Of a stretch of DNA of 64,000 nt, positions 19,714-62,144 are shown piece after piece. Position 1 is the stretch's first letter; each line of letters begins with the position of its first letter. The stretch is from a virus (lineage: Duplodnaviria; Heunggongvirae; Uroviricota; Caudoviricetes): IMG/VR virus record IMGVR_UViG_3300026549_002453; one strand, 5' to 3'. The notes beneath the pieces are model-generated. The model saw nothing but the letters and a program-made list of their open reading frames with translations, made no database searches and was not told the DNA's origin. Both the position numbers and the translations under genes were made by a program.

Positions 19714-21189
19714 ATGAAAGAAGTAAAAGTATTAGCAAAAGATGGTCAAGAATTAATGCCTACAACAATTGAAAAAGCGAATAAACTAATATCAAAGGGA
19801 GAAGCAGAGATAGTAGAAACTTCCCCTATGACAATTAGAATACTAAAGAATACTAAAAGATATAAGCAAGAAACTCTCGGCGATAGTTATGATTTGCCTA
19901 TAACTTATGAGGAAAAGATTCCTATTGGTGTAACATACATAAATGAAGAAGTAGATTTATATTGGTCTCTTAAAAAATACTCTGAGGAACATTGGAATGT
20001 AGTATACTCGAATACTGTACTTGTTGCTGATGATGACCTTAATCCGAGCTTCTTCATTCATAACACTATTGCGAGTCTTAATTATACACCTAACATTAGT
20101 ATGATATATACAAGTAAACTAAATGGTAGTAAATATGCTTTTGCGAGAAATGTAAGAGGTTCTGCAGGTAATGATGTATCCATAGCGGACACCTCAGAAA
20201 GAGTGAAAAGGCTAATGATGGACCGCTTTAAGTTGCTTGAACAACATCAGGTTAATAGAATTGAACTCTTAAACGGAACGGTACTTACTAACTATAAAAT
20301 GTTTAATAGAGAATGGAATTGGGATGCATTATTTACTGTTGTGGATAATACAGACGCGCCTGAAAAGGCTTTCGGTAAAATGGGTACAGTGTGGCACAAC
20401 AGAAATTATTATACTATAACAATTAAAGAAATGTATGAAAAACTAAATAATGGCGAAATAAAGTACTTTACACTTGCAACACCAGTAAAAGGGGTACCAA
20501 GGCACATATTTAAGTTTGATATTGAAAAAACAGAGGGTGAATACGCGCCCCACAAAGTCATTCTTATCATAGATGACCTCGATGAAATAATGCTTTGCGA
20601 TAATTATAAAGCGGTACATACAGTTAAAGATTCATTAAGTGCAATCGCCAGATTAGGTAGAGCTGCAGGAGTATATCTAATACTTAAGTGTCAAAGGGCA
20701 AGTGGGTCTACTGTGTCTACAGATTTATTAAATAATTGCCTAATTAAAATAAGGACAGGTAATTCTTATGTAGGTCAAGATATTTTTATGTTTGATAAAG
20801 AATTACCGCCATTAAAAGATAATAGAGCATATGTACAATTTTATGGTAGAGAAGTATATGAAATACAGTCATACAACCCTCACAATATAGAACCTTGGGA
20901 TGACGTGTTTGATATAACAAAGACATCTATTGCAGAAATTCAAGCAAACACGGGATATGCAAAAGACTTCGACTTAACAGTAAAACCAAGTAAAGAACTG
21001 TTAGATAAAATAGAGGAAAGTAAGAAAGAGTATGCAAAGTTTGTAGAAGAAACTGAGTATGTATATCTTTCAAAAGGAGAAGTAAAAGATAGATTACTAA
21101 AGAAAATAAATAGTTTGGAAAAAGAAATAAGCTCAATAAAAGAAGATATTGATATGTTGTTTTCTGAATTAGATAATATTATAGAATAG
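19714..21189 (+). CDS. FtsK/SpoIIIE-like protein with degenerate Walker A and an N-terminal PLMP-like domain
   Basis: C-terminal half matches the FtsK motor signature (ILIIDDLDE...IARLGRAAGVYLILKCQRASGSTVSTDLLNNCLIKIRTGN). The Walker A position reads GSAGNDVS, so the Lys is lost. The first ~45 aa align with the PLMP domain of the IscB at 57156. Confidence 0.65.
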   Translation: MKEVKVLAKDGQELMPTTIEKANKLISKGEAEIVETSPMTIRILKNTKRYKQETLGDSYDLPITYEEKIPIGVTYINEEVDLYWSLKKYSEEHWNVVYSNTVLVADDDLNPSFFIHNTIASLNYTPNISMIYTSKLNGSKYAFARNVRGSAGNDVSIADTSERVKRLMMDRFKLLEQHQVNRIELLNGTVLTNYKMFNREWNWDALFTVVDNTDAPEKAFGKMGTVWHNRNYYTITIKEMYEKLNNGEIKYFTLATPVKGVPRHIFKFDIEKTEGEYAPHKVILIIDDLDEIMLCDNYKAVHTVKDSLSAIARLGRAAGVYLILKCQRASGSTVSTDLLNNCLIKIRTGNSYVGQDIFMFDKELPPLKDNRAYVQFYGREVYEIQSYNPHNIEPWDDVFDITKTSIAEIQANTGYAKDFDLTVKPSKELLDKIEESKKEYAKFVEETEYVYLSKGEVKDRLLKKINSLEKEISSIKEDIDMLFSELDNIIE

Positions 21190-39089: not shown

Positions 39090-39204
39090 GTGTGAACATT
39101 AGGTACTCTGGCCTAAAGAGTTTAAATAATGCAGTCCGCCGACGGTTAGCCTAATTTCATATATGAGTTTAGCAGTATCTCATTAAAAACTGCCTCCCCT
39201 TTCT

Positions 39205-39275
39205 GGCGGGATGATGCAATGGTAGCAAAAGAGACTCATTCTCTCTTAGTTTTGGTTCAAGTCCAAATCCCGCAA
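39205..39275 (+). tRNA. tRNA-Met/Ile(CAT)-like element, atypical
   Basis: Hand-folded cloverleaf: acceptor stem GGCGGGA/TCCCGCA (one mismatch), D-arm with GG, anticodon stem AGAGA/TCTCT with loop CTCATTC (anticodon CAT but T at position 37), T-arm TTTGG-TTCAAGT-CCAAA; no encoded CCA. Confidence 0.4.
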
Positions 39276-39355
39276 GACTTATGTGTATACAACCTTGACG
39301 TGGTATAAGTCCTTTAAACTAATAGTATACAATTATTTTAAAAAGGAGAAGTATA

Positions 39356-50416: not shown

Positions 50417-51640
50417 TTGTTAGTACAAAGAACTGAACAACACATCATAGATAGACAGTCCAAGTGGTACAAAATGCTTAAGGAATTGTGTTATAAAGCT
50501 AAAAACACTTATAATCAAGGCAACTATATTATCAGGCAAGAATTTATTAAAAATGGTAAGTGGTTAAGGTATAATGACGTAGATAAACTGCTTAAGTATG
50601 ACCCTCAAAATGATAACTATTACTCTTGGTACGCTCATGCAAATCAACAAGTGCTTAGAAGACTTGATAAAAACTGGAAAAGCTTCTTCGCAAGTATAAA
50701 AGATTGGAAGAAAAATCCCTCTAAGTATAACGGCGTGCCAAAATTACCTAAGTATCTTAAAAAAGATGGTCTAACTGAATGGGGCATTACGGCGGGTGAA
50801 CTTAGGTTAGATTATACCGAAGGATTAATATATTTTCCTAAAGTGATGCAAGGTTTTAATATTCAACCACAATTTATCTATGATGAAAGATTTGTTCAAT
50901 TTAATCATTGTAGAATTGTTCCTAAGAATGATAGAATTATTGTCGAATTAATTTATACTATCTCAATCCCTGATTTTGTTAAAGAGCAAGGCTCTATAGG
51001 AAGTATTGACCTTGGTTTAGATAACTTTGTAACCTTTGTTGATAATCTTGGAAATCGTCCAATTATCATCAACGGTAAAGGTCTAAAGTCCTGTAATCAA
51101 TACTATAACAAGTTAATCGCTCAAATAAAATCAGAGCTTGATAAAAACGGTAATTCAGGATATAGTCACTTGCTATATTCAATTACAAACAAGCGAAATG
51201 ATAAAATTAAGCATTTCATGGATAAAGCATCTAAATATATTGTTGAAAATTGTCTTGATTTAGGAATAAAAACTATCGTGATTGGTAAAAATGATAATCA
51301 AAAACAAAATAGCAGAATGAAAAACTTTGTGCAAATTCCATATAACTTGTTTATTCAAAAACTTGCGTATAAGTGTCAAGAAGTAGGAATTGAACTAATT
51401 CTTACTGAAGAAAGTTATACAAGTGGTACAAGTTTTCTTGATGATGAACTACCAACTAAAGAAAATTATAATATTTCAAGAAGAGTAAAACGAGGGTTAT
51501 TCAAAAGCAATGACGGCAAGTTAATAAACGCAGATGTAAACGCTGCATACCAGACAATAAAAAAGGTATTCTCCGATGCTGTAAAGCCAGGAGATATAGG
51601 GTTAGTAATGAACCCAGTTCGGGTAAACTTTAGTTTCTGA
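50417..51640 (+). CDS. tnpB: TnpB-like (IS200/IS605 OrfB family) protein lacking the C-terminal zinc finger
   Basis: RuvC-I GSIDLGLDNF; YTSG segment; RuvC-III NADVNAAYQ. There are no CxxC pairs where the zinc finger should be. The residue expected for the RuvC-II Glu aligns to IVIGKND, so a Gly or Lys may sit there. GGAGG RBS, TTG start. Confidence 0.75.
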   Translation: MLVQRTEQHIIDRQSKWYKMLKELCYKAKNTYNQGNYIIRQEFIKNGKWLRYNDVDKLLKYDPQNDNYYSWYAHANQQVLRRLDKNWKSFFASIKDWKKNPSKYNGVPKLPKYLKKDGLTEWGITAGELRLDYTEGLIYFPKVMQGFNIQPQFIYDERFVQFNHCRIVPKNDRIIVELIYTISIPDFVKEQGSIGSIDLGLDNFVTFVDNLGNRPIIINGKGLKSCNQYYNKLIAQIKSELDKNGNSGYSHLLYSITNKRNDKIKHFMDKASKYIVENCLDLGIKTIVIGKNDNQKQNSRMKNFVQIPYNLFIQKLAYKCQEVGIELILTEESYTSGTSFLDDELPTKENYNISRRVKRGLFKSNDGKLINADVNAAYQTIKKVFSDAVKPGDIGLVMNPVRVNFSF

Positions 51641-52980: not shown

Positions 52981-53009
52981 TTTACAAAAGGTTCCCTCCG
53001 TGATATAAT
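52981..53009 (+). promoter_or_regulatory. sigma-A promoter TTTACA-17-TATAAT driving the vWA/metallopeptidase gene
   Basis: Perfect hexamers, 17-nt spacer and upstream A-tract; duplicate of the 51791 promoter, including the downstream leader TAAGGAGAAATCAAA. Confidence 0.6.
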
Positions 53010-53044
53010 ATATATGTAATTAATAAGAATAAAGGAGAAATCAA

Positions 53045-54619
53045 ATGTTAAACTACAATATTGTAAATGAAATTTTTAAAACTCTTCCTGTAGGTTATTA
53101 TCTTGGTAGAAAGATTGAGTGTGAGCTGTCTGAAACAGAATCAGGAAGTTACTACAATCCCGCCAAGGATGTCATAGTAGTAAGTTACCCTATGGTCAAA
53201 AAAGCTCTTAGTTCTGTTGAATATACTAGAGAAGGTCTTGAAGAACTTGTTAGAACTATTCTTTATCATGAAATTTCTCATGTTATTCTTACTCCTAAAA
53301 ATTGGAGAATGAGTAGAATCCATAATATAGTAGAAGACGAGAGAATTGAAACCATCTTTAGAACCTACTATATGAACACAAACTTTAGAAAAACAGTTAA
53401 ATTAATAAATAACTTTGAAGGTGTGTCCGTTATTAGCTCAACCCCCATTAGTATGGATAGTGCGTTTTATCATCTCGTAAGATATAGAATTGGAGAAGAA
53501 AAGTGGTTGGAAAGACTTTCTTCCCTTATTTACAAGTATAGAACTCTTAATGCAAATGATAACTATCGTGATTACCAATGGGATATTGATGATTTTTACA
53601 GAGATTTCTGTAGAGAGTGGAGAACCAAAGAAACTGATGAAGCTAGGTCTGATGAAGGGGACAAAGAATCTGGTTCTTCCACTGAACCCTCTCCTGACGT
53701 AACGGAGATGGATGAAAGCTCAGAAACGGCAGAAGAATCTGAAGAACCCTCTGAATACATTTCTAAAACATCCTCCGAGACAGCAGAAGAACTTGATGAC
53801 GCTGATGATGTAGAACAGGATAATAGTGATAACCCTGGTTGTGGTGATGAGAGCGACTTTGAAGATACAATAGAGGATGCTACTAATATCATTAAAAAAG
53901 CAATTAAATCCACCATTGACAAATATAATGATGAAACTCTTACAGCTAGACTCATTCAAATAGTTGACAGAAAACTTAAGCAAAATAAAAAGACAGGTTC
54001 CGCAATAAATAGTTACAGTGGTCAACTTAATAAAAGAGCAATAGCCACTAGAGATGATTACCGTTGGTGGACAACACAGAATAGAGAAGGCAATATCAGA
54101 AGATACTCCAATGTTCACTTTAATCTTTTTATTGACAACAGTGGAAGCTTCTCTCATAATGATACTCTTATGAATACTTTTATTAAGAGTCTTGATAAGA
54201 TTTCTAAAATGAACAAGCAGTTTACCTTTGATGTCATTACTATCAATCACGAAGTAGTAGAATGGGAAGACCACAATAGAGAGTTTGATTCTTGTGGAGG
54301 TAACGAACTTACTGATGATATTGCCAAAGTAATTAAGAGACATACAAAGGTCAATTCAAATAATTACAATATAGTACTCTTTGATGGAGACGCTCATAGT
54401 GATGATTTTAGAAACTACACACCCGAGCAACACATGGCTAAGGGTACAGCTATGGACCCATTCAGGCATTTTGATGGGCCTAACACAATCATTATTTCAG
54501 ACCCCTATAACAAAAAGTATATTACGGCATCAGTAAAAAAGGCAAGAACGATATACACCTATGACTATTGTAATACTTTTGCTGATAATATCTGTAACCT
54601 TCTTGAAAAGGTAATATAA
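53045..54619 (+). CDS. HExxH metallopeptidase-like + acidic linker + von Willebrand factor A (MIDAS) domain protein (partner of the MoxR ATPase)
   Basis: HEISH motif at residue ~75; D/E/S-rich linker; vWA MIDAS motif DNSGSFS. Confidence 0.7.
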   Translation: MLNYNIVNEIFKTLPVGYYLGRKIECELSETESGSYYNPAKDVIVVSYPMVKKALSSVEYTREGLEELVRTILYHEISHVILTPKNWRMSRIHNIVEDERIETIFRTYYMNTNFRKTVKLINNFEGVSVISSTPISMDSAFYHLVRYRIGEEKWLERLSSLIYKYRTLNANDNYRDYQWDIDDFYRDFCREWRTKETDEARSDEGDKESGSSTEPSPDVTEMDESSETAEESEEPSEYISKTSSETAEELDDADDVEQDNSDNPGCGDESDFEDTIEDATNIIKKAIKSTIDKYNDETLTARLIQIVDRKLKQNKKTGSAINSYSGQLNKRAIATRDDYRWWTTQNREGNIRRYSNVHFNLFIDNSGSFSHNDTLMNTFIKSLDKISKMNKQFTFDVITINHEVVEWEDHNREFDSCGGNELTDDIAKVIKRHTKVNSNNYNIVLFDGDAHSDDFRNYTPEQHMAKGTAMDPFRHFDGPNTIIISDPYNKKYITASVKKARTIYTYDYCNTFADNICNLLEKVI

Positions 54620-54629
54620 GGAGTAAAAT

Positions 54630-55238
54630 ATGATATATAAAAAAGATGATAATAACTTTATTCTCAGTTGTAGTTGTGGATGTGGCGAAGCTCTTTCTTT
54701 TGTTATCCCAGATTTTTACGAAGGTTATGGTGATTATTGCTTCATTAATCCTGTTTGTTACGGTACAAATAAAGATAAAACAAGCGTTTGGTATAACATC
54801 AAGGAAACTTTTACTAATATCGTTAAACTTATAACAGGTAAAAATGTATATAGAGTAGGTATCTGTCTTACACCTGGGGATATTGAAACATTGGTCAAAT
54901 GGTTTGAAAAGCAACTTGTCAAAGCTAAGAAAAACAATCTAGTACCTAAAGAAGATAGTTTTATAAGTATATTTAATAGTGATATAATTGAGTATAGAGA
55001 CGGTGAAGAAATTTATATAGGAGTGGATGGTGACTATTCGGACATTTTTGAACTATACTTTTATTCTACAAGAGTACATAATTATAAACTAATGCAAACT
55101 ATTAGGCAGATATTTAGAGAGTTTAGAAGAAATAAATATATGCTTCCTGAAATAGTATTTAATCGTATTAGTTTTATTCATTTTTGTGAATATATGATAG
55201 ATACTATTAGACCATACATAGAAAAGGAGAAATGTTAA
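54630..55238 (+). CDS. hypothetical protein with N-terminal Cys cluster
   Basis: CSCGCGE motif; 202 aa. Confidence 0.45.
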   Translation: MIYKKDDNNFILSCSCGCGEALSFVIPDFYEGYGDYCFINPVCYGTNKDKTSVWYNIKETFTNIVKLITGKNVYRVGICLTPGDIETLVKWFEKQLVKAKKNNLVPKEDSFISIFNSDIIEYRDGEEIYIGVDGDYSDIFELYFYSTRVHNYKLMQTIRQIFREFRRNKYMLPEIVFNRISFIHFCEYMIDTIRPYIEKEKC

Positions 55239-55239
55239 T

Positions 55240-56241
55240 ATGATTAAAACAGGTCAATATGGTAGATACTATGAATATGAACAAGATGGGCAAACTAAGA
55301 GGTTGAGTTTGCCTTCAAAAGAAATCACTGAACAGCTAGCAGAACAATTAATAATGGGTAAGCAAGTTCAATATGAAAAAAAGTTTACCACATATAAAAA
55401 GATAATTACAGCAAAAACGGTCCCATATACAAATAAAAAGGGTAAGAACACTATCATTGTTAAAGAGGAGGAGCTTGAAACCATTTTTGATAGTGACCTT
55501 ATTCTTGGGGCTGTTTCTAATATCCGTCCTGTTTTGGAGCAGGATACTATTGAAAGCCTTGCCCAGAAGTTCAAGAAGGTCATAACTGAACTAGAACTCG
55601 TTGCCTCTTGGGGAGTTAGACATTTTCATCACAGTGAACGTGCAGGTGATAAAATTATATATTATATAGGCATAGAACAGAATATGCCTATATCTCGCAG
55701 CAGGTATGGTGAAAGTTTGCCAAATAAGGCATACATAATAGACAACTCGCTGTCAGGCTGCATCTTAGAAGAACCCGATGAACAAAGGTTAGAACAGTTC
55801 AGAGCTGAAGTTAGGGTTTGGCGCGAAAAGGAGAGTGAGCGTAGGGCTGCAGAGGCTACTAAGGCTAGGGAAAAAGCTATAAAAGAAGAGGAAGAAAGAA
55901 TTAGGGCCATTCCATGGAAAGAAAGGTATCTTGAAGACTATAAGGACAGCGAAAATCAGTATAATGAACTCCTAGCTGTCCTGCAGGACAAATATCCAGA
56001 TAAGGACCCTTCTACTCTGATATTATACAAATATAAGTATTATAACAGAATTGAACATGATATCCACAATTCACGCCCAGGGTATGTAGACAGTTGGATG
56101 CTTGTAACGGAAATGCTCCCAGGACTAAACCCTAAAGATGTTCTCTTTGATACATTCTTTTTAGTAGATACCGGTATTTCGGAAACAACGGAATACGGGG
56201 CTGAATACAAAGTAAAGTATAGACGTCACAACGCAGATTAA
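55240..56241 (+). CDS. hypothetical protein with a charged coiled-coil segment
   Basis: TAATATG overlap; R/E-rich helix. Confidence 0.45.
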   Translation: MIKTGQYGRYYEYEQDGQTKRLSLPSKEITEQLAEQLIMGKQVQYEKKFTTYKKIITAKTVPYTNKKGKNTIIVKEEELETIFDSDLILGAVSNIRPVLEQDTIESLAQKFKKVITELELVASWGVRHFHHSERAGDKIIYYIGIEQNMPISRSRYGESLPNKAYIIDNSLSGCILEEPDEQRLEQFRAEVRVWREKESERRAAEATKAREKAIKEEEERIRAIPWKERYLEDYKDSENQYNELLAVLQDKYPDKDPSTLILYKYKYYNRIEHDIHNSRPGYVDSWMLVTEMLPGLNPKDVLFDTFFLVDTGISETTEYGAEYKVKYRRHNAD

Positions 56242-56260
56242 AAAAAAAGGAGAAAATACA

Positions 56261-56524
56261 ATGCCTAAAAAAGAAATCACGCAAGAAATGATTGATAATC
56301 TCAACAACGAACTCAATGACTCTATAATTATGTGTAAGTTGAGACCAGATAATTTTGGACCTACCATTGATTTTGTTCTTAGAAATGAAACAAGGATAAG
56401 TTCTTATATTATCAATCTTGAGGAAGATACTCACAAGATGATTGAAAACTTCTTTGAAAAACAAGGGATTAAAATTAAGTATAACAACACACGCTCATGT
56501 TTCTGGGCGTCTGTAAGTGATTAA
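56261..56524 (+). CDS. hypothetical small protein
   Basis: AAGGAG RBS. Confidence 0.4.
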   Translation: MPKKEITQEMIDNLNNELNDSIIMCKLRPDNFGPTIDFVLRNETRISSYIINLEEDTHKMIENFFEKQGIKIKYNNTRSCFWASVSD

Positions 56525-56539
56525 AAGGAGTAAAAAGAA

Positions 56540-56809
56540 ATGAAAACATTAAAAGAAGATTGGCAAGCTCAACAAGATTGTGACCCTAAGGCTCACGGAG
56601 TAAATCCATTAGAAATTAAAGGAGTAACTATAACTCTCACCCATTCGGATAGCGGCGGATTTATGATTGGGTTTAATGTACCCGGCAGAGGTACTTGGTC
56701 AGAGCCTGTGTCTGATTATAAAGATTTTTATGATGCTCTTGGACACATATTTGTAGAAGAGGGAGGTATAATGGATAACTTATTGTGTAAAGGAACTCTA
56801 TTAGAGTGA
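56540..56809 (+). CDS. hypothetical small protein
   Basis: AAGGAG RBS. Confidence 0.4.
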   Translation: MKTLKEDWQAQQDCDPKAHGVNPLEIKGVTITLTHSDSGGFMIGFNVPGRGTWSEPVSDYKDFYDALGHIFVEEGGIMDNLLCKGTLLE

Positions 56810-57155
56810 ACGAGTGCACACCCTGAAAGTGCCACTTTCACAAGCATAGCTTGAAGTGTATGCACCTTCGGGTACAAGACGTTCACAAGACTTAGGTTGG
56901 AGAAATCCTACCTACGTTAAATAGGTTATGACACCCATGGATGTTGGGCAAGACCATTGCTCTGTCGATTAGTTTTAAGTTGAATGCTAGTGTACAGATA
57001 GTTCTGTGAACTAATTATGTAAGCCTATTTAACATTGTCGATGCCAAGTCCGACACTTATTATGGTAATATTAGTAAGTTAGGCACTACAGTCATTAGAA
57101 GTACTGGTTTATAGCGTAAAACTTCTAAAATATCTACAGAAAGGAGCTAAAGCGT
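56810..57155 (+). ncRNA. candidate IscB omega RNA / structured 5' leader
   Basis: 346-nt non-coding stretch, more GC-rich than the surroundings, directly upstream of iscB. Contains several local hairpins, e.g. GAAAGTG-C-CACTTTC and ACC-TTCG-GGT (a UUCG tetraloop). IscB omega RNAs lie 5' of iscB. Confidence 0.5.
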
Positions 57156-58439
57156 ATGTTTGTATATGTTTTAGATAGTAATGGACAACCACTTATGCCA
57201 ACATCTCGTTTTGGCAAGGTTCGTAGATTACTTAATTTAAAACAAGCTAAAGTAGTACGGAGTTGTCCATTCACTATACAGTTGTTGTATGAACCTAAAA
57301 CAACTGTAGTACAAGAAATTGTCTTAGGAGTAGATACAGGTTCAAAACGTATTGGCACAGCTTGTGTTGCTAATGACAAAGTTCTATATCAATCACAGAT
57401 TGAATTGAGAACTGATATCAAATCTAAAATGGACAGTCGTAGACAAGCTCGTAGGTTTAGACGAAATCGTAAAACTAGATACAGAAAAGCAAGATTCCTA
57501 AACAGAGCTAATTCTACAAAGAAAGACAGATTACCACCAAGTGTAAGACATAAGGTACAAGCTCACATTGATGAGGTAGAATTTTGTAAGAAAATACTAC
57601 CAATTTCAAAAATTGTACTTGAGGTAAGTCAATTTGATACCCACTTAATGAAAAATCCTGCATTAATAAGCGAAAAATTAAAACATTGGGCTTATCAAAA
57701 GGGTTTCAATTATGAATTTAGTTCAAGAAGAGAAGCAGTGTTACACAGAGATAACTATACTTGTCAAATATGTGGTAAAAAACATACAAAATTAGAAGTA
57801 CATCATATCATTTATAGAAGTCAAGGTGGTACGGATGATGAGGATAATCTCATAACTCTATGTAAAGATTGTCATGATGCACTACACGATGGACAAATAA
57901 TATTGACTAAAAAACCTCGTAGGATGAATCTTAAACATGCAACTCACATGAGCATTATTAGAAGTCAATTACTTAAAGTCTATCCTGAAGCTACAGAAAC
58001 ATTTGGATTTGTAACTAAAGAGAATAGAAATCATCTTGATTTGCCAAAGGACCACTATATAGATGCTTGTGTAATAGCATCAGGTGGAGAAGGGTTTAAA
58101 CTTAATAATGAGATATTTTACAAAAGAAGAGTAGCTTATGCAGATAGAAAACTATGTAGAGGTATTCGAGGAGAAGAAAGAATACCAACGGGTAAAATAC
58201 ATGGTTTTAAGAGATATGACAAAGTTAGATATTTTAACAAAGAGTATTTTATCAAGGGCAGAATGAGTAATGGATATGTAGTATTGATGGACATATTTAA
58301 TAATAAGGTAGATTTTAGTTACATGCCAAAAGGCATGAAAACGCCTAAATTGGCAAATTGTAAAAGATTAAATTCAAGAAAAAGTGTAATAGTGGATAGG
58401 CAAGAAAGGTATGTAATTTTCTTGCCTAAGATTGTATAA
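57156..58439 (+). CDS. iscB: IscB, OMEGA-system RNA-guided nuclease (PLMP, split RuvC, HNH)
   Basis: PLMP domain with the literal PLMP motif; RuvC-I VLGVDTGSKRIG; Arg-rich bridge helix RRQARRFRRNRKTRYRKARF; HNH CQICGKK...HHIIYRSQGG...DNLITLCKDCHDALH; RuvC-III HYIDACVIASGG. Confidence 0.85.
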   Translation: MFVYVLDSNGQPLMPTSRFGKVRRLLNLKQAKVVRSCPFTIQLLYEPKTTVVQEIVLGVDTGSKRIGTACVANDKVLYQSQIELRTDIKSKMDSRRQARRFRRNRKTRYRKARFLNRANSTKKDRLPPSVRHKVQAHIDEVEFCKKILPISKIVLEVSQFDTHLMKNPALISEKLKHWAYQKGFNYEFSSRREAVLHRDNYTCQICGKKHTKLEVHHIIYRSQGGTDDEDNLITLCKDCHDALHDGQIILTKKPRRMNLKHATHMSIIRSQLLKVYPEATETFGFVTKENRNHLDLPKDHYIDACVIASGGEGFKLNNEIFYKRRVAYADRKLCRGIRGEERIPTGKIHGFKRYDKVRYFNKEYFIKGRMSNGYVVLMDIFNNKVDFSYMPKGMKTPKLANCKRLNSRKSVIVDRQERYVIFLPKIV

Positions 58440-58451
58440 AGGAGAAAAAGT

Positions 58452-58733
58452 ATGATATTAGATATAGACAATGCTTGTTATGGAACTTTGTCTCTTGACT
58501 CTATGGATGATGAAGTAAGTAAGGATACTTACTTTGTTAATGGTGACACGGCGGACAGTGTATCTTTTAAGATTGGGTATGAAGTTTTACTTTCAAGCGG
58601 AAAGAAGGTTGGAAAATTATATTCAGGTGTGGTACAAAGTGTAGATGTAGATAGTGGAACAATTAGTGTTGATGGAAACGACTTAAAGGTTTCCAATTTC
58701 GAATATTTTGCCAGAGTTGGACATTACTCATAA
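58452..58733 (+). CDS. hypothetical protein
   Basis: AAGGAG RBS. Confidence 0.4.
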   Translation: MILDIDNACYGTLSLDSMDDEVSKDTYFVNGDTADSVSFKIGYEVLLSSGKKVGKLYSGVVQSVDVDSGTISVDGNDLKVSNFEYFARVGHYS

Positions 58734-58745
58734 GAGGGAGGTACA

Positions 58746-58949
58746 ATGGCTGATTATACAAACAATGATTTTATAAAGTGTGCAAAGTGTGCTTCTAAAA
58801 ATATACGAATTAAAAACAAAGACTTTGATATAATAGAAGACTATATAGAATTATATTTAGATTTTAAGTGCAATGATTGCGGTGCAAGTACTAGGATTTC
58901 ACTAGTTAATCCCTATAAACCAGAAAGAGTAAACGTATTTAGCGATTAA
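58746..58949 (+). CDS. C4 zinc-ribbon small protein
   Basis: CAKCAS...CNDCGAS. Confidence 0.4.
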   Translation: MADYTNNDFIKCAKCASKNIRIKNKDFDIIEDYIELYLDFKCNDCGASTRISLVNPYKPERVNVFSD

Positions 58950-58960
58950 GGAGGATAGTT

Positions 58961-59215
58961 ATGACTCTGAAAAATTTTTTAGATACTTGTAGTTCCAATG
59001 CAATAAATATTGGGGTGTTTGATGCTCATGATAACCTATTGTATGATGGATTACTCTATTTAATAGGATATCTGAGTGAGAGAACTACCGATAGTGAAAA
59101 TCAAAATAAAGCATACTTTTCTGAAGAAGAGACCGATGCAATCCTTAATTCAACCGTGCAGGTATGGTACCTAGATGATGATAGTATAGGTATAGGTACT
59201 GATTACGAGAGATAA
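58961..59215 (+). CDS. hypothetical small protein
   Basis: AAGGAG RBS. Confidence 0.4.
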   Translation: MTLKNFLDTCSSNAINIGVFDAHDNLLYDGLLYLIGYLSERTTDSENQNKAYFSEEETDAILNSTVQVWYLDDDSIGIGTDYER

Positions 59216-59218
59216 TTT

Positions 59219-59259
59219 TGTAAATAATTATTTACAGTTTAGAGAATATAATATATAAT
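59219..59259 (+). promoter_or_regulatory. perfect 18-bp palindrome TGTAAATAATTATTTACA overlapping a TTTACA-17-TATAAT promoter
   Basis: Palindrome 59219-59236; -35 TTTACA 59231-59236; -10 TATAAT 59254-59259; upstream of the 59304/recombinase module. Confidence 0.55.
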
Positions 59260-59303
59260 AATATTATATATAATACTGAAAGAAAGGAGGCAAGGTCTAA
59301 AAT

Positions 59304-59807
59304 ATGGCAAGAACATTTCAAGAGGCTCAGAAAGATGTAAATGTTATGTATAAAAATCTTGTTCAAATCGCAGATGATATAATCAAGAAAAATACAGAGC
59401 ACCTAGATAAAACGATTAAGCAAATTGAGAATAATGTAGAAAATCTAACAGACAGCGATTTGAGAAATTACATATTGAAGTTAGCATCTTTGGCCTATGC
59501 ACTTGGAGATAAGGTAGAACACGCAGATTTCAAACGTGATTGTGCTAATGCTCTTTTAAAGGAGACTAATGCTAGAGAATTCAACCTAGCGGCAGGTCCT
59601 GTTGCAACAAAACAGAATGTTGCTTTGCTTAATACTAGTCAAGAAACAGCGGTTAATATTCTTTACAACGTGGTTGCTGACAGTATGAAAAGTAAGTTAC
59701 AATTGACAAACAGGATGTTGGATAGTATTAAAAATGTACTTATATCCAGAAGTGCTGAAGCAAAAATCCAAAATCAATTGGGATTTGGAACCAAAGAAGA
59801 ACTTTAA
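59304..59807 (+). CDS. hypothetical protein (first gene of the recombination module)
   Basis: AAGGAGG RBS; 167 aa. Confidence 0.45.
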   Translation: MARTFQEAQKDVNVMYKNLVQIADDIIKKNTEHLDKTIKQIENNVENLTDSDLRNYILKLASLAYALGDKVEHADFKRDCANALLKETNAREFNLAAGPVATKQNVALLNTSQETAVNILYNVVADSMKSKLQLTNRMLDSIKNVLISRSAEAKIQNQLGFGTKEEL

Positions 59808-59833
59808 TCGATTACAGAAAGGAAACACAACTT

Positions 59834-61027
59834 ATGGCTAGTGTATTAGATATTGCTAAACAAATAAATAAAAAATATAAAGATGGTAAAGTTATTGTCG
59901 CAGGAGACATACTACCAGATGTAAAGAAGGTGCCTTTTGGAACTCTCGGTGCTGATTATGCTACTTGGGGAGGAGTTCCTTACGGAGCGATCTCAGTTTT
60001 TGCAGGTGACTACGGTTCTGGTAAGACTACCGCAGCAGCTCTCGTAATGGCAAACTATCAGAGAGCAAACCCAGATAAGACTTGTGTATATGTAGATGTA
60101 GAAGGTGTTTTACCTCTTCAGTTACCATATTTAGTAAAGATGACAGGTTTACAGACAGATGAGGACCATTTTGTAAGATACGACTGTTACGGAAAATCCT
60201 CTAAATCAATATTTGAGGACCTTCTTGACCTTCAAACCGGTTCAGATAATATTGGTATGATTATAATTGATAGCGTTGCTTCCCTGGTGTCGGATAACGA
60301 CATGGAAAGTGATTTTAGTAAGGATAACGGTATGAGAGCGAGTACGGCTAGTGACTCTCATAAATTCTGTAGAATGGTAATTCCACAACTTCAGAAAAAA
60401 GGCAATATTATTCTTGCAATTAATCAAGTAAGAACAGTAGGCAAAACCTTTACAGGAGCACCCATTCTCAAAGAACCTGGTGGAGACGCTTGGAACTATT
60501 ATAGTTCATTTAAAGTAAGGTTCGGTACCAGGACTTTCGTCAAGGATGATAAGACAGACATTGCAGCATCCAAAGCAGAAGATACTACTGGATTTAGACT
60601 TAAGTTTAGTATTACAAAGTCTAGAGTATGTCCCATTAATAGAGGCGGCGGATTTATTACTTTTGACTTAGAGGAAGGTCTTGACCTTATTAATGATACT
60701 CTTGAGGCGGCCATTAAATTCGAATTTATTGAAAGACCTAATCTTCAGACTTACATTCCTGTTAATTTGACCACGGGAGAGTACTACAAGGATAAAGACG
60801 GGTCAGACCTTAAGTTTATAGGCAAGGCTAAACTGGTGTCTTATATGCAAGAAAACGAAGACTTTACCAAGGAATACTTTAATATGCTGTTAAATCATGT
60901 TAATGGAACAAATCCTTCAGGAGTATCACTACTTAACCCTGAGGAGTTGGCTGAAATTCTTGAAGAAGAAGCAAGCATTGAATCTCCCAAAACCAAAAGA
61001 AAAAAGTCAGCTGAGGTAGAAGAGTAA
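59834..61027 (+). CDS. RecA-family recombinase (phage RecA/UvsX-like)
   Basis: Walker A GDYGSGKTT, IIIDSVASLV, AINQVRT, EPGGDAWNYYSSFKVRF; collinear with RecA core motifs. Confidence 0.85.
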   Translation: MASVLDIAKQINKKYKDGKVIVAGDILPDVKKVPFGTLGADYATWGGVPYGAISVFAGDYGSGKTTAAALVMANYQRANPDKTCVYVDVEGVLPLQLPYLVKMTGLQTDEDHFVRYDCYGKSSKSIFEDLLDLQTGSDNIGMIIIDSVASLVSDNDMESDFSKDNGMRASTASDSHKFCRMVIPQLQKKGNIILAINQVRTVGKTFTGAPILKEPGGDAWNYYSSFKVRFGTRTFVKDDKTDIAASKAEDTTGFRLKFSITKSRVCPINRGGGFITFDLEEGLDLINDTLEAAIKFEFIERPNLQTYIPVNLTTGEYYKDKDGSDLKFIGKAKLVSYMQENEDFTKEYFNMLLNHVNGTNPSGVSLLNPEELAEILEEEASIESPKTKRKKSAEVEE

Positions 61028-61401
61028 TGGCCTCCTTATTTAAGCAGTCAATAAAAAAAGAAGCTAAACCTAAAACGACTAGGGAAGCCTCTTCAAAACA
61101 AGAACACAGTGTAGCAAAAGCTGTTGGTGGTAGAACAACTGCCAACAGCGGAGCTTCTGCATTTAGTAAGGGTGACATTTTAACAGAACAGTGGCTCATT
61201 GAAGCTAAAACAAAAATGACAGATAGTCAATCTATCTCTATAAAAAAAGAATGGATAGAAAAAAATAAGCAGGAAGCAGTATTTATGAATAAGGATTATC
61301 ACTGCATAGCCTTTAATTTTGGTCCCAATCAGCCTAACTATTTTATTATTGATGAACTAACCTTTCAAGAGTTACTAAGTCATCAAAAGGAGAACCAATG
61401 A
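61027..61401 (+). CDS. PD-(D/E)xK Holliday-junction resolvase-like protein (Hjc-type)
   Basis: E...GGRTTANSGAS...GDIL...IEAKTK matches the Hjc E/SGxG/D/ExK layout; ATGGCC overlap with the recA stop. Confidence 0.5.
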   Translation: MASLFKQSIKKEAKPKTTREASSKQEHSVAKAVGGRTTANSGASAFSKGDILTEQWLIEAKTKMTDSQSISIKKEWIEKNKQEAVFMNKDYHCIAFNFGPNQPNYFIIDELTFQELLSHQKENQ

Positions 61402-61565
61402 AAATTATGGAAAAGTTAAACATAGATTTTGCAGAAAGAGAAATTATAGACAATATGGTAAAATTCTGTTGGAACATCCAATCAAATTGTAGAGATGAGG
61501 AATTGGTAGATATTGCAACAGAAGTCTTAGAAAAGATAGAAAAGTTAGAGGAGTATATAGTATAA
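61398..61565 (+). CDS. hypothetical small protein (55 aa)
   Basis: AAGGAG RBS; ATGA overlap with the upstream gene; ends 1 nt before the next start. Confidence 0.35.
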   Translation: MKIMEKLNIDFAEREIIDNMVKFCWNIQSNCRDEELVDIATEVLEKIEKLEEYIV

Positions 61566-62144
61566 ATGAAACTGGTTATAGGAATATCAGGTAAAGCTCA
61601 ACACGGTAAAGACACTATTGCAACTTATCTTCAATCTAGGCTAGGAGGCTCCATTGTACATTTTACAGATCTACTTAAGGAGCAGGCTCAATACTTGGGT
61701 TGGGATGGTACTAAAGATATTGGAGGACGTACATTTCTGCAAACTTTATCGGAACCTATCAGGAAGTACGGTAATTGGTTAGCTGAAAAGTATCCAGAAT
61801 ATAGAGATTTTTCAGGAGGTAACTATTATTCCGCTTCTTTATACAACGCAATTTTAGAGGGAGAGTCCGATATATACTATATAGCTGATATGAGAATGAT
61901 GCAGGAGTATAAATTTTTCCTCGATAAGGGTAATGAAGGTAAAATAAAATTTATTACTTTACGAGTAGATAGATTAGAAGAGGGGGCTCCATTTGATAAT
62001 GGACTAACACCTTCTCAAAAACTAGATAAAACAGAAACAGAGTTAGACACTACTCAGATGGATTATCACATTATCAACGATGGGGATATCTCAGCCCTGG
62101 AGACTAATTTGGAAGGAATAGTAAAAGACTTATGCGAACTATAA
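61566..62144 (+). CDS. deoxynucleoside monophosphate kinase-like P-loop kinase
   Basis: N-terminal P-loop IGISGKAQHGKDT, typical of phage dNMP kinases. Confidence 0.7.
   Translation: MKLVIGISGKAQHGKDTIATYLQSRLGGSIVHFTDLLKEQAQYLGWDGTKDIGGRTFLQTLSEPIRKYGNWLAEKYPEYRDFSGGNYYSASLYNAILEGESDIYYIADMRMMQEYKFFLDKGNEGKIKFITLRVDRLEEGAPFDNGLTPSQKLDKTETELDTTQMDYHIINDGDISALETNLEGIVKDLCEL

Follow-up and report, generated by a model that had tools for sequence, protein, structure and literature searches.

A discrete insertion of ∼1.63 kb, read on the plus strand, lies between two small phage genes in a 64 000-nucleotide stretch of Caudoviricetes DNA (IMG/VR record IMGVR_UViG_3300026549_002453; this whole stretch is referred to as the window and all positions are given in its numbering). 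From its 5′ end, the insertion contains a structured non-coding leader starting at 56806, an intact iscB gene (57156–58439) that encodes a nuclease of 427 amino acids, and a subterminal hairpin at 58397–58428 over which the end of the reading frame extends. The upstream neighbour is an 89-residue open reading frame (ORF) at 56540–56809 and the downstream neighbour a 93-residue ORF at 58452–58733, both on the plus strand. The segment from 56806 to about 58439 is probably a tnpA-less, non-autonomous IS200/IS605 insertion of the 'ISC' type, consisting of an omega RNA gene, iscB and the subterminal hairpin, which lies at the joint of two small conserved genes in what is probably a jumbo phage and would be maintained by homing or retention. 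The locus is an expected member of the well characterized IscB/omega RNA (HEARO) family. An earlier note, written by a model from the sequence and its ORFs, had proposed an intact IscB preceded by its omega RNA, and its main claims are taken up below.

The iscB gene begins with ATG, and its product was identified from Pfam, the solved IscB chains, its motifs and 60 homologues. The RRXRR domain (PF14239, E = 1.1e-58) covers residues 3–183 and positions 1–174 of the 174 in the profile, while an HNH domain (PF01844, E = 2.5e-15) occupies residues 203–245 between RuvC-II and RuvC-III. When all PDB chains are searched with phmmer, the best matches are IscB chains (E = 3e-41 to 3e-38), headed by 11hr, 11hx and OgeuIscB (7xht/7utn) at E = 3e-41 to 2e-39, and IsrB and small Cas9s rank after them. 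Along the chain follow the PLMP motif (12–15), GVDTGS of RuvC-I (58–63), an arginine-rich bridge helix (95–114), VLEVSQFD of RuvC-II (154–161), EVHHII of the HNH domain (214–219) and KDHYIDACV of RuvC-III (298–306), the last being followed by SGG. The motifs quoted in the earlier note are all present and in the order that it gave. The catalytic residues are Asp60 (RuvC-I), Glu156 (RuvC-II) and His300 and Asp303 (RuvC-III). In the alignment with the solved enzymes, OgeuIscB included, VLGVDTGS (Asp60), IVLEVSQF (Glu156), EVHHII (His216/His217) and PKDHYIDACVIAS (His300/Asp303) coincide with the corresponding motifs, and those of Asp60, Glu156 and His300/Asp303 lie opposite VLGIDPG, VVLELNRF and PKDHYLDAY. 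The HNH residues Cys203, Cys206, His216, His217, Asn231, Cys236, Cys239, His240 and His244 are present as well. Among the 60 homologues the catalytic positions are invariant or nearly so. The protein is an intact IscB, as the earlier note had claimed. Its family is large: about 8000 proteins match it at E < 1e-10, the best with 89% identity, and about 100 relative loci (designated here by L numbers) were fetched from viral and metagenomic collections.

The 346 nucleotides between the upstream stop codon and the iscB start codon (56810–57155) contain no plus-strand ORF of at least 40 amino acids, in agreement with the non-coding character assigned to them before. A cmscan search places the Rfam model HEARO (RF02033), which is the IscB omega RNA, at 56806–57053 (E = 9e-17, model positions 1–211). 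The score of 83.9 bits compares with a gathering threshold of 83, and this is the sole Rfam match at gathering level in the window. In the relatives HEARO scores 83.9–93.1 bits at the same position, each match ending about 100 nucleotides before the ATG. Because the score is marginal, the structure was tested on the relatives, using an alignment of 50 non-redundant upstream regions and the RNAalifold consensus derived from it. The consensus contains 64 pairs, 52 of which show compensatory changes. Of the alignment cells, 96.5% are paired, compared with 33–44% when the partners are slid by one to three columns, and the covariation score of 0.557 falls to 0.06–0.085 in these slid controls. None of 500 shuffles reaches any of the observed pairing measures. 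All omega RNA helices are intact in the window copy. Helix P1 pairs GUGAACG (56806–56812) with CGUUCAC (56881–56887) and is reproduced by the single-sequence fold. Folded as a single RNA, the leader has an energy of −95.4 kcal/mol (z = −2.7 relative to shuffles) and carries a C(UUCG)G loop near 56866 within ...GCACCTTCGGGTAC..., which bears out the local hairpins and the UUCG tetraloop seen earlier. The higher GC content that had been ascribed to the leader holds for its first ∼200 nucleotides only (0.43 at 56800–56999 compared with about 0.30–0.35 in neighbouring sequence).

The conserved RNA continues beyond the Rfam model. Two further covarying hairpins lie 3′ of it and extend to 57106; this 3′ extension (57048–57106) comprises helices 10–12 of the alignment, at 57048–57051/57082–57084, 57055–57063/57071–57079 and 57089–57095/57101–57106. 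Two-sided changes occur in all nine pairs of helix 11 and in four of the five pairs of helix 12, with 96–98% of the cells paired. The remaining linker (57107–57155), which includes the iscB Shine–Dalgarno sequence (GAAAGGAG), is conserved as far as the ATG in the 50 relatives. As sequence conservation thus runs on through the Shine–Dalgarno sequence to the start codon, the conserved RNA-coding region fills essentially the whole leader. The leader is an omega RNA of conserved structure, as the HEARO match and the strong covariation in the relatives establish.

The 5′ boundary of the scaffold differs from that first proposed. The earlier note had set the omega RNA at 56810–57155 with the guide at its 5′ end; the conserved region does fill nearly all of the leader, but the scaffold starts at 56806, four nucleotides further 5′, and the guide of about 16 nucleotides would fall upstream of it. 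Conservation in the family begins exactly at GT(G/A)A, the 5′ strand of P1, and the blastn alignment with the closest relative (L001) starts at 56805. The stop codon of the upstream ORF (TGA, 56807–56809) therefore lies inside the element and the guide inside the preceding ORF. The upstream ORF likewise ends in the 5′ G-TGA or G-TAA of the element in about nine of the 50 related loci; its orthologues of 87–88 amino acids in L116–L119 have their own stop codon. If a guide of 16 nucleotides is assumed, as in characterized IscB systems, it would be AAGGAACTCTATTAGA (56790–56805), directly 5′ of the first conserved scaffold base. The 16-mers at this position are unique in 49 of the 50 related loci, as expected of guides derived from flanking DNA, and that of the window has no second match in the window at up to two mismatches. 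This arrangement is in agreement with the description of IscB guides as lying outside the transposon, 5′ of the scaffold (Meers et al., PMC10055086).

Relatives without the insertion define it as a discrete unit. In L116, L117–L119 and L120/L121 the two flanking genes are adjacent, 13–96 nucleotides apart, with no IscB between them; the downstream ORF has homologues P0122–P0125 on contigs L116–L121 and adjoins the upstream ORF in these element-free relatives. The empty joint of L117 reads ...GGAACTCTATTGTAGAAGGAGAAAAATAATG, while that of the window reads ...GGAACTCTATTAGA|GTGAAC...(element)...CCTAAGATTGTATAAAGGAGAAAAAGTATG. On the right-hand side the flank aligns with ...CTCTATTGTAGAAGGAGAAAAATAATG in L117 and ...ATATTGTGAAAGGAGAAAGATATG in L116, from which the end of the insertion lies somewhere within 58430–58439, in a boundary zone of 58429–58444 that also holds the candidate target-adjacent motif (TAM). 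Two junction alignments are about equally good. The insert spans either 56803–58433, with a 3-nucleotide ATT ambiguity, or 56806–58438/9, with a difference of two nucleotides in the left flank. The empty joint may be reconstructed as ...CTATTAGA|AAGGAG... or as ...CTATT|GTATAAAGGAG.... We have a modest preference for 56806–58438/9, since it coincides with the start of the family-wide scaffold conservation and leaves AAGGAG as the flank, similar to the ATGAA, ATGGA or AAGAA that directly follows the conserved ends of many related copies and to the TTCAT TAM of Geobacillus. For the IscB of G. stearothermophilus the TAM is reported to be TTCAT, i.e. ATGAA on the iscB strand (PMC10055086).

AAGGAG (58439–58444) is at the same time the Shine–Dalgarno sequence of the next gene, and we favour it as the candidate TAM. 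The ribosome-binding site of the downstream gene is native to the phage. An element reaching to 58451, bringing its own AAGGAG ribosome-binding site and inserted in an ATGA stop/start overlap, was considered and rejected: between the two genes, the insertion-free relatives possess an (A)AGGAGAAA...ATG of their own, and a second ribosome-binding site is missing from the left flank. Any TAM logo drawn from the related copies is confounded at the boundary by A-rich element ends, start codons and Shine–Dalgarno sequences. L001, with 87% nucleotide identity, was likewise tried as an independent insertion from which to fix the right boundary and was discarded, because it carries ∼45 nucleotides of window-type flank and 27 nucleotides of its target are replaced. 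As a separate observation, the 96-nucleotide spacer at the empty site of L116 (4905–5000) repeats the 3′ end of the upstream gene in degenerate form (KDFYDVLGH...). This second copy is preceded by another 3′ end, which differs from it and is functional, so that local mosaicism occurs exactly at the IscB target region.

The absence of an adjacent TnpA, which had already been remarked upon, extends to the whole window. A tblastn search with the TnpA of the family itself finds no Y1 TnpA there (best E = 1.3), and Y1_Tnp is not among the 25 listed of the 36 Pfam families matched by the 64 plus-strand ORFs. In relatives with 80–85% identical IscB (L122, L140 and L142), by comparison, tnpA follows immediately downstream on the same strand and is itself followed by a covarying hairpin. 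It is also present in L087, L090, L101, L104, L106 and L107, directly downstream of iscB in the first two of these, while many related copies have lost all of it except for traces of the first and last codons, now fused. With no TnpA in the window and tnpA in close relatives, the window copy is therefore a non-autonomous ISC derivative and not an autonomous insertion sequence. The earlier description as a solo OMEGA element is right in that TnpA is missing here; it is refined to a tnpA-deleted derivative of the autonomous IscB + TnpA elements of related contigs. Solo IscBs lacking TnpA are the rule and not the exception (PMC9755519).

The ends of the element fit the same affiliation. IS200/IS605 elements have similar left and right ends, and the related elements carry the motif CTNAGCTAAAGACNNA at both ends, once within the 5′ scaffold region and again within the 3′ hairpin. 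Of the subterminal hairpins of IS200/IS605, the one at the 3′ end is present in the window as TAGGCAAGAAA/TTTCTTGCCTA (58397–58428), with 11 perfect base pairs and a loop of ten nucleotides, and the 5′ end is formed by the structured scaffold. The hairpin at 58397–58428 would correspond to the 'left end' of the transposon in IS200/IS605 nomenclature. Many relatives have a comparable covarying hairpin after iscB or tnpA; when viral contigs were searched for exact copies of the 3′ hairpin motif, none was found. It is a deletion of ∼45 nucleotides relative to L001 that has extended the IscB reading frame over this hairpin.

Some related ends adjoin the next gene very closely. In all 14 loci of one subgroup (including L071, L081, L063, L080, L083, L077, L038 and L045) the ATG of the next gene lies 5–8 nucleotides after the terminal hairpin with no Shine–Dalgarno sequence between. 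A GAGAGG/AGGAAAGG stretch is found just 5′ of the terminal hairpin, and folding of the hairpin could bring it near the ATG. For L087 and L140, the sequence of the element end is itself AAGGAGGTATAAAC.

By analogy with characterized systems, the element most likely serves to cut, under guidance by its RNA, those alleles that lack it, after which homing or retention would follow. Transcription of the omega RNA, the guide length, the TAM, cleavage and homing are steps that we infer. Read-through from the co-oriented upstream phage genes would yield an RNA that consists of the last ∼16 nucleotides of the upstream gene, as the guide, and ∼300 nucleotides of scaffold; no terminator-like site is found in 55200–59300, which is compatible with such read-through. 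IscB together with this RNA would cut DNA in which a match to the guide is followed by the TAM. Such DNA would be the empty form of this locus, present in a genome copy from which the element has been lost or in a related phage that infects the same cell. Repair by recombination with a copy that bears the element would then restore or spread it. The resident copy would be spared because the scaffold (GTGAAC...) takes the place of the TAM. The model was demonstrated for the Geobacillus elements (Meers et al. 2023, PMC10055086), and a recent review extends it, as a concept, to co-infecting phages (PMC13565253).

Several findings weigh against this interpretation of the locus or against parts of it. 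The HEARO score exceeds its threshold by just 0.9 bit, and the omega RNA call rests mainly on the covariation of the relatives. In the protein, the C-terminal 121 residues (307–427) have no relevant sequence match in the PDB, and the extreme C-terminus has been changed by the ∼45-nucleotide deletion. The AlphaFold2 model, calculated from a shallow alignment of the 60 close homologues, has a mean pLDDT (predicted local distance difference test score) of 52 and is confident only at residues 1–50 and 350–410. Residues 350–410 are predicted to be β-rich within this poor overall model, and the C-terminal β-rich domain is presumed to be the TAM-interacting domain. Foldseek ranks IscB structures first for this model with TM-scores of at most 0.2, and this ranking was not used as independent support. 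At the insertion site, the right end is placed only to within 58430–58439 and the TAM is a candidate. The empty sites come from diverged phages with flanking proteins of 55–85% identity and are offset by two nucleotides from the guide beside the junction, so that they are not demonstrably cleavable; a currently cleavable target was identified in none of the insertion-free relatives. Finally, as the window has no transposase, one would have to act in trans for the element to transpose.

Some of these points are shared by the alternative that survives best, although we consider it unlikely: the window copy would be a stranded relic, a recently immobilized tnpA-less element with no cleavable target that persists because it is young and harmless, its IscB and RNA being made without use. 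The lack of TnpA, the altered C-terminal tail and the inexact match of the insertion-free relatives to the guide all agree with this, as does the occurrence of decayed family members with premature stops (L017, L018, L020 and L041). Against it, the 427-residue reading frame is intact, with the catalytic residues and family-invariant positions all kept, and so are the RNA helices. Moreover, homing requires just IscB, the omega RNA and recombination, TnpA being dispensable (PMC10055086).

Less probable still is that the phage itself gains, keeping the element as an exapted weapon that excludes co-infecting element-free relatives in the manner of the marker exclusion by T4 Seg/Mob, a concept discussed in PMC13565253. 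Such a benefit would suit a clade that is common on large viral contigs and almost never met in bacterial species genomes, guides that target conserved phage gene ends and a UvsX-like recombinase encoded nearby. Its mechanism is the same as that of homing and the two cannot be told apart from sequence alone. The variation in copy number, the decayed copies and the tnpA-bearing relatives look less like a fixed function of the phage than like the spread of a selfish element. A protein-only HNH homing endonuclease of the conventional kind, with a regulatory untranslated region as its leader, for which the labels 'HNH endonuclease' or 'McrA' given to such proteins by PHROGs and some other sources might speak, is negligibly probable given the full RRXRR/RuvC architecture around the HNH domain, a leader that matches HEARO and covaries as a known omega RNA, and a region 5′ of the scaffold that is hypervariable as a guide would be.

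The distribution of the clade adds a wider perspective. IscB relatives are found on IMG/VR contigs of 160–285 kb, with four copies on one contig of 248 kb. A pattern-based search of 185 579 bacterial and archaeal genomes, one per species, returned only one close relative, on a 3.6 kb contig of a metagenome-assembled genome; a metagenome contig has the identical sequence. The closest relative of the element, L001 (7266–7360), stands at an unrelated locus, as seen by comparison with window positions 58429–58470 and with L135 and L136. It nevertheless carries ∼45 nucleotides of window-type right flank, comprising the ribosome-binding site, the ATG and four codons. This flank continues in frame into another, unrelated gene, and the empty sites in L135 and L136 show that 27 nucleotides of the target were replaced. 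The pattern suggests break repair or imprecise mobilization and not clean transposition. As an observation on the decayed copies, the IscB of L017 (1500–9722; IMGVR_UViG_3300008490_000240) is cut short by a premature stop (331 codons); it is located on a 168 kb viral contig, within a tRNA gene array of more than 25 members, and L079 shares this insertion.

Taken together, one may tentatively picture an IscB/ISC lineage that is all but confined to large phage genomes and spreads among them as an RNA-guided homing element, its tnpA-less copies moving by break repair that drags flanks along, as in L001, and its ends fitted to phage operons; we regard this as possible and well short of probable. 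Under this same phage-lineage picture, the 5′ G-TGA or G-TAA may serve to end the upstream gene, insertion sites that are signals for translation initiation (a Shine–Dalgarno sequence or ATG-AAN) may double as the TAM, and some ends may carry an outward Shine–Dalgarno sequence that serves the downstream gene.

The surroundings of the element are phage-like, as had been proposed. All non-nested ORFs of at least 150 amino acids in the window are on the plus strand, and PHROG matches include a UvsX-like recombinase (1.4 kb downstream of the element), dCMP deaminase, dNMP kinase, a Holliday-junction resolvase, endolysins, homing endonucleases and a minor head protein. An identical copy of the downstream protein is encoded on a contig of 253 880 bp, and the host genome of the element is probably a phage of ∼254 kb. 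A megablast search of 53000–62000 against the INPHARED phages gave no match, and searches of IMG/VR with the two small flanking proteins gave no relatives.

Several other features of the window deserve mention. A 407-residue ORF at 50417–51637 (plus strand), situated 5.5 kb before the IscB element, shows similarity to OrfB_IS605 (E = 1.2e-16) and to the Cas12f1-like TNB domain (E = 2.3e-9), marking it as a TnpB-type OMEGA nuclease; its closest PHROG label is 'transposase' and no Rfam RNA lies beside it at gathering level. A 491-residue ORF at 19714–21186 (plus strand) matches the RRXRR start, i.e. the PLMP region, with its first ∼50 residues (E = 1.2e-7) and then an FtsK/SpoIIIE ATPase (E = 7.9e-6); a PLMP-like domain outside IscB is unusual. 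Very large surface-protein-like ORFs, one of 2362 amino acids, follow one another between 22182 and 48476 and carry domains typical of Gram-positive cell surfaces (LRR_5/BspA, MucBP, Flg_new, CWB2, SpaA and DUF11). These surface-type ORFs, an unusual cargo for a phage, hint at a Firmicute host. ARAGORN finds a single tRNA-Met (CAT) at 39204–39276 (plus strand), which is not in the Rfam gathering scan of the window.

Cas9 descends from IscB–omega RNA systems, which are now under development as compact genome editors. An intact enzyme of 427 amino acids with a defined RNA, together with a clade that offers natural variants by the thousand, usefully extends the catalogue of these systems. The context is biologically more informative: the clade is multi-copy on large viral contigs and near-absent from bacterial reference genomes, with autonomous and tnpA-less copies at gene boundaries. 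It offers a natural setting for the question of whether RNA-guided nucleases act as homing or 'gene-drive' elements between co-infecting phages, an idea raised until now largely through comparison with protein homing endonucleases. The clade-level picture, with its phage restriction, multiple copies, gene-boundary insertions and the flank transfer in L001, may merit a separate look.

Compared with known systems, the closest structural counterpart is OgeuIscB (7xht, 7utn, 8csz), which has the same domain order and catalytic motifs. The match covers residues 2–310 (E ≃ 2e-39), and both systems encode their RNA immediately before the nuclease gene, with the guide segment at the 5′ end of the RNA. 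The TAM NWRRNA reported for OgeuIscB (PMC12660989) is purine-rich, as is the candidate AAGGAG here. OgeuIscB is longer (496 compared with 427 amino acids). Only part of the sequence aligns, and the presumed C-terminal TAM-interacting domain has no detectable sequence similarity; the conserved RNA region here measures ∼300–350 nucleotides and has two hairpins beyond the Rfam model. The HEARO model itself (RF02033) is matched over its full length (1–211) immediately upstream of an HNH/RuvC ORF, but the subgroup of the window, L001 and L122 has extra 5′ hairpins, and there are additional 3′ hairpins that the model lacks. Phage genomes with an annotated HEARO are already on record, for example those of Staphylococcus Silviavirus phages (PMC13346280); no description of IscB in jumbo phages specifically was found in the literature searched.

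In its overall layout, the element most resembles the ISGst5-type IscB elements of G. stearothermophilus (PMC10055086). Both belong to IS200/IS605, with the scaffold forming one end, the guide (here predicted) lying in the flank and the TAM (here a candidate) beyond the other end. Both have co-oriented neighbours that permit read-through, and cleavage of the element-free joint with homing or retention is proposed for both. The TTCAT TAM of the ISGst5 type corresponds to the ATGAA that follows related copies here. The window copy differs in that it has no TnpA, resides in a phage-like genome and not in a bacterial chromosome, and has AAGGAG and not ATGAA as its own flank. A second parallel is provided by the free-standing homing endonucleases Seg and Mob of T4 (PMC13565253), whose genes lie between conserved phage genes and which are expected to cut the element-free allele and to be copied by recombination with co-conversion of the flanks, as proposed here. 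Such co-conversion would fit the ∼45 nucleotides of window-type flank in L001. Unlike Seg and Mob, recognition here would be by a guide RNA and not by the protein, and the element has transposon ends and tnpA-bearing relatives.

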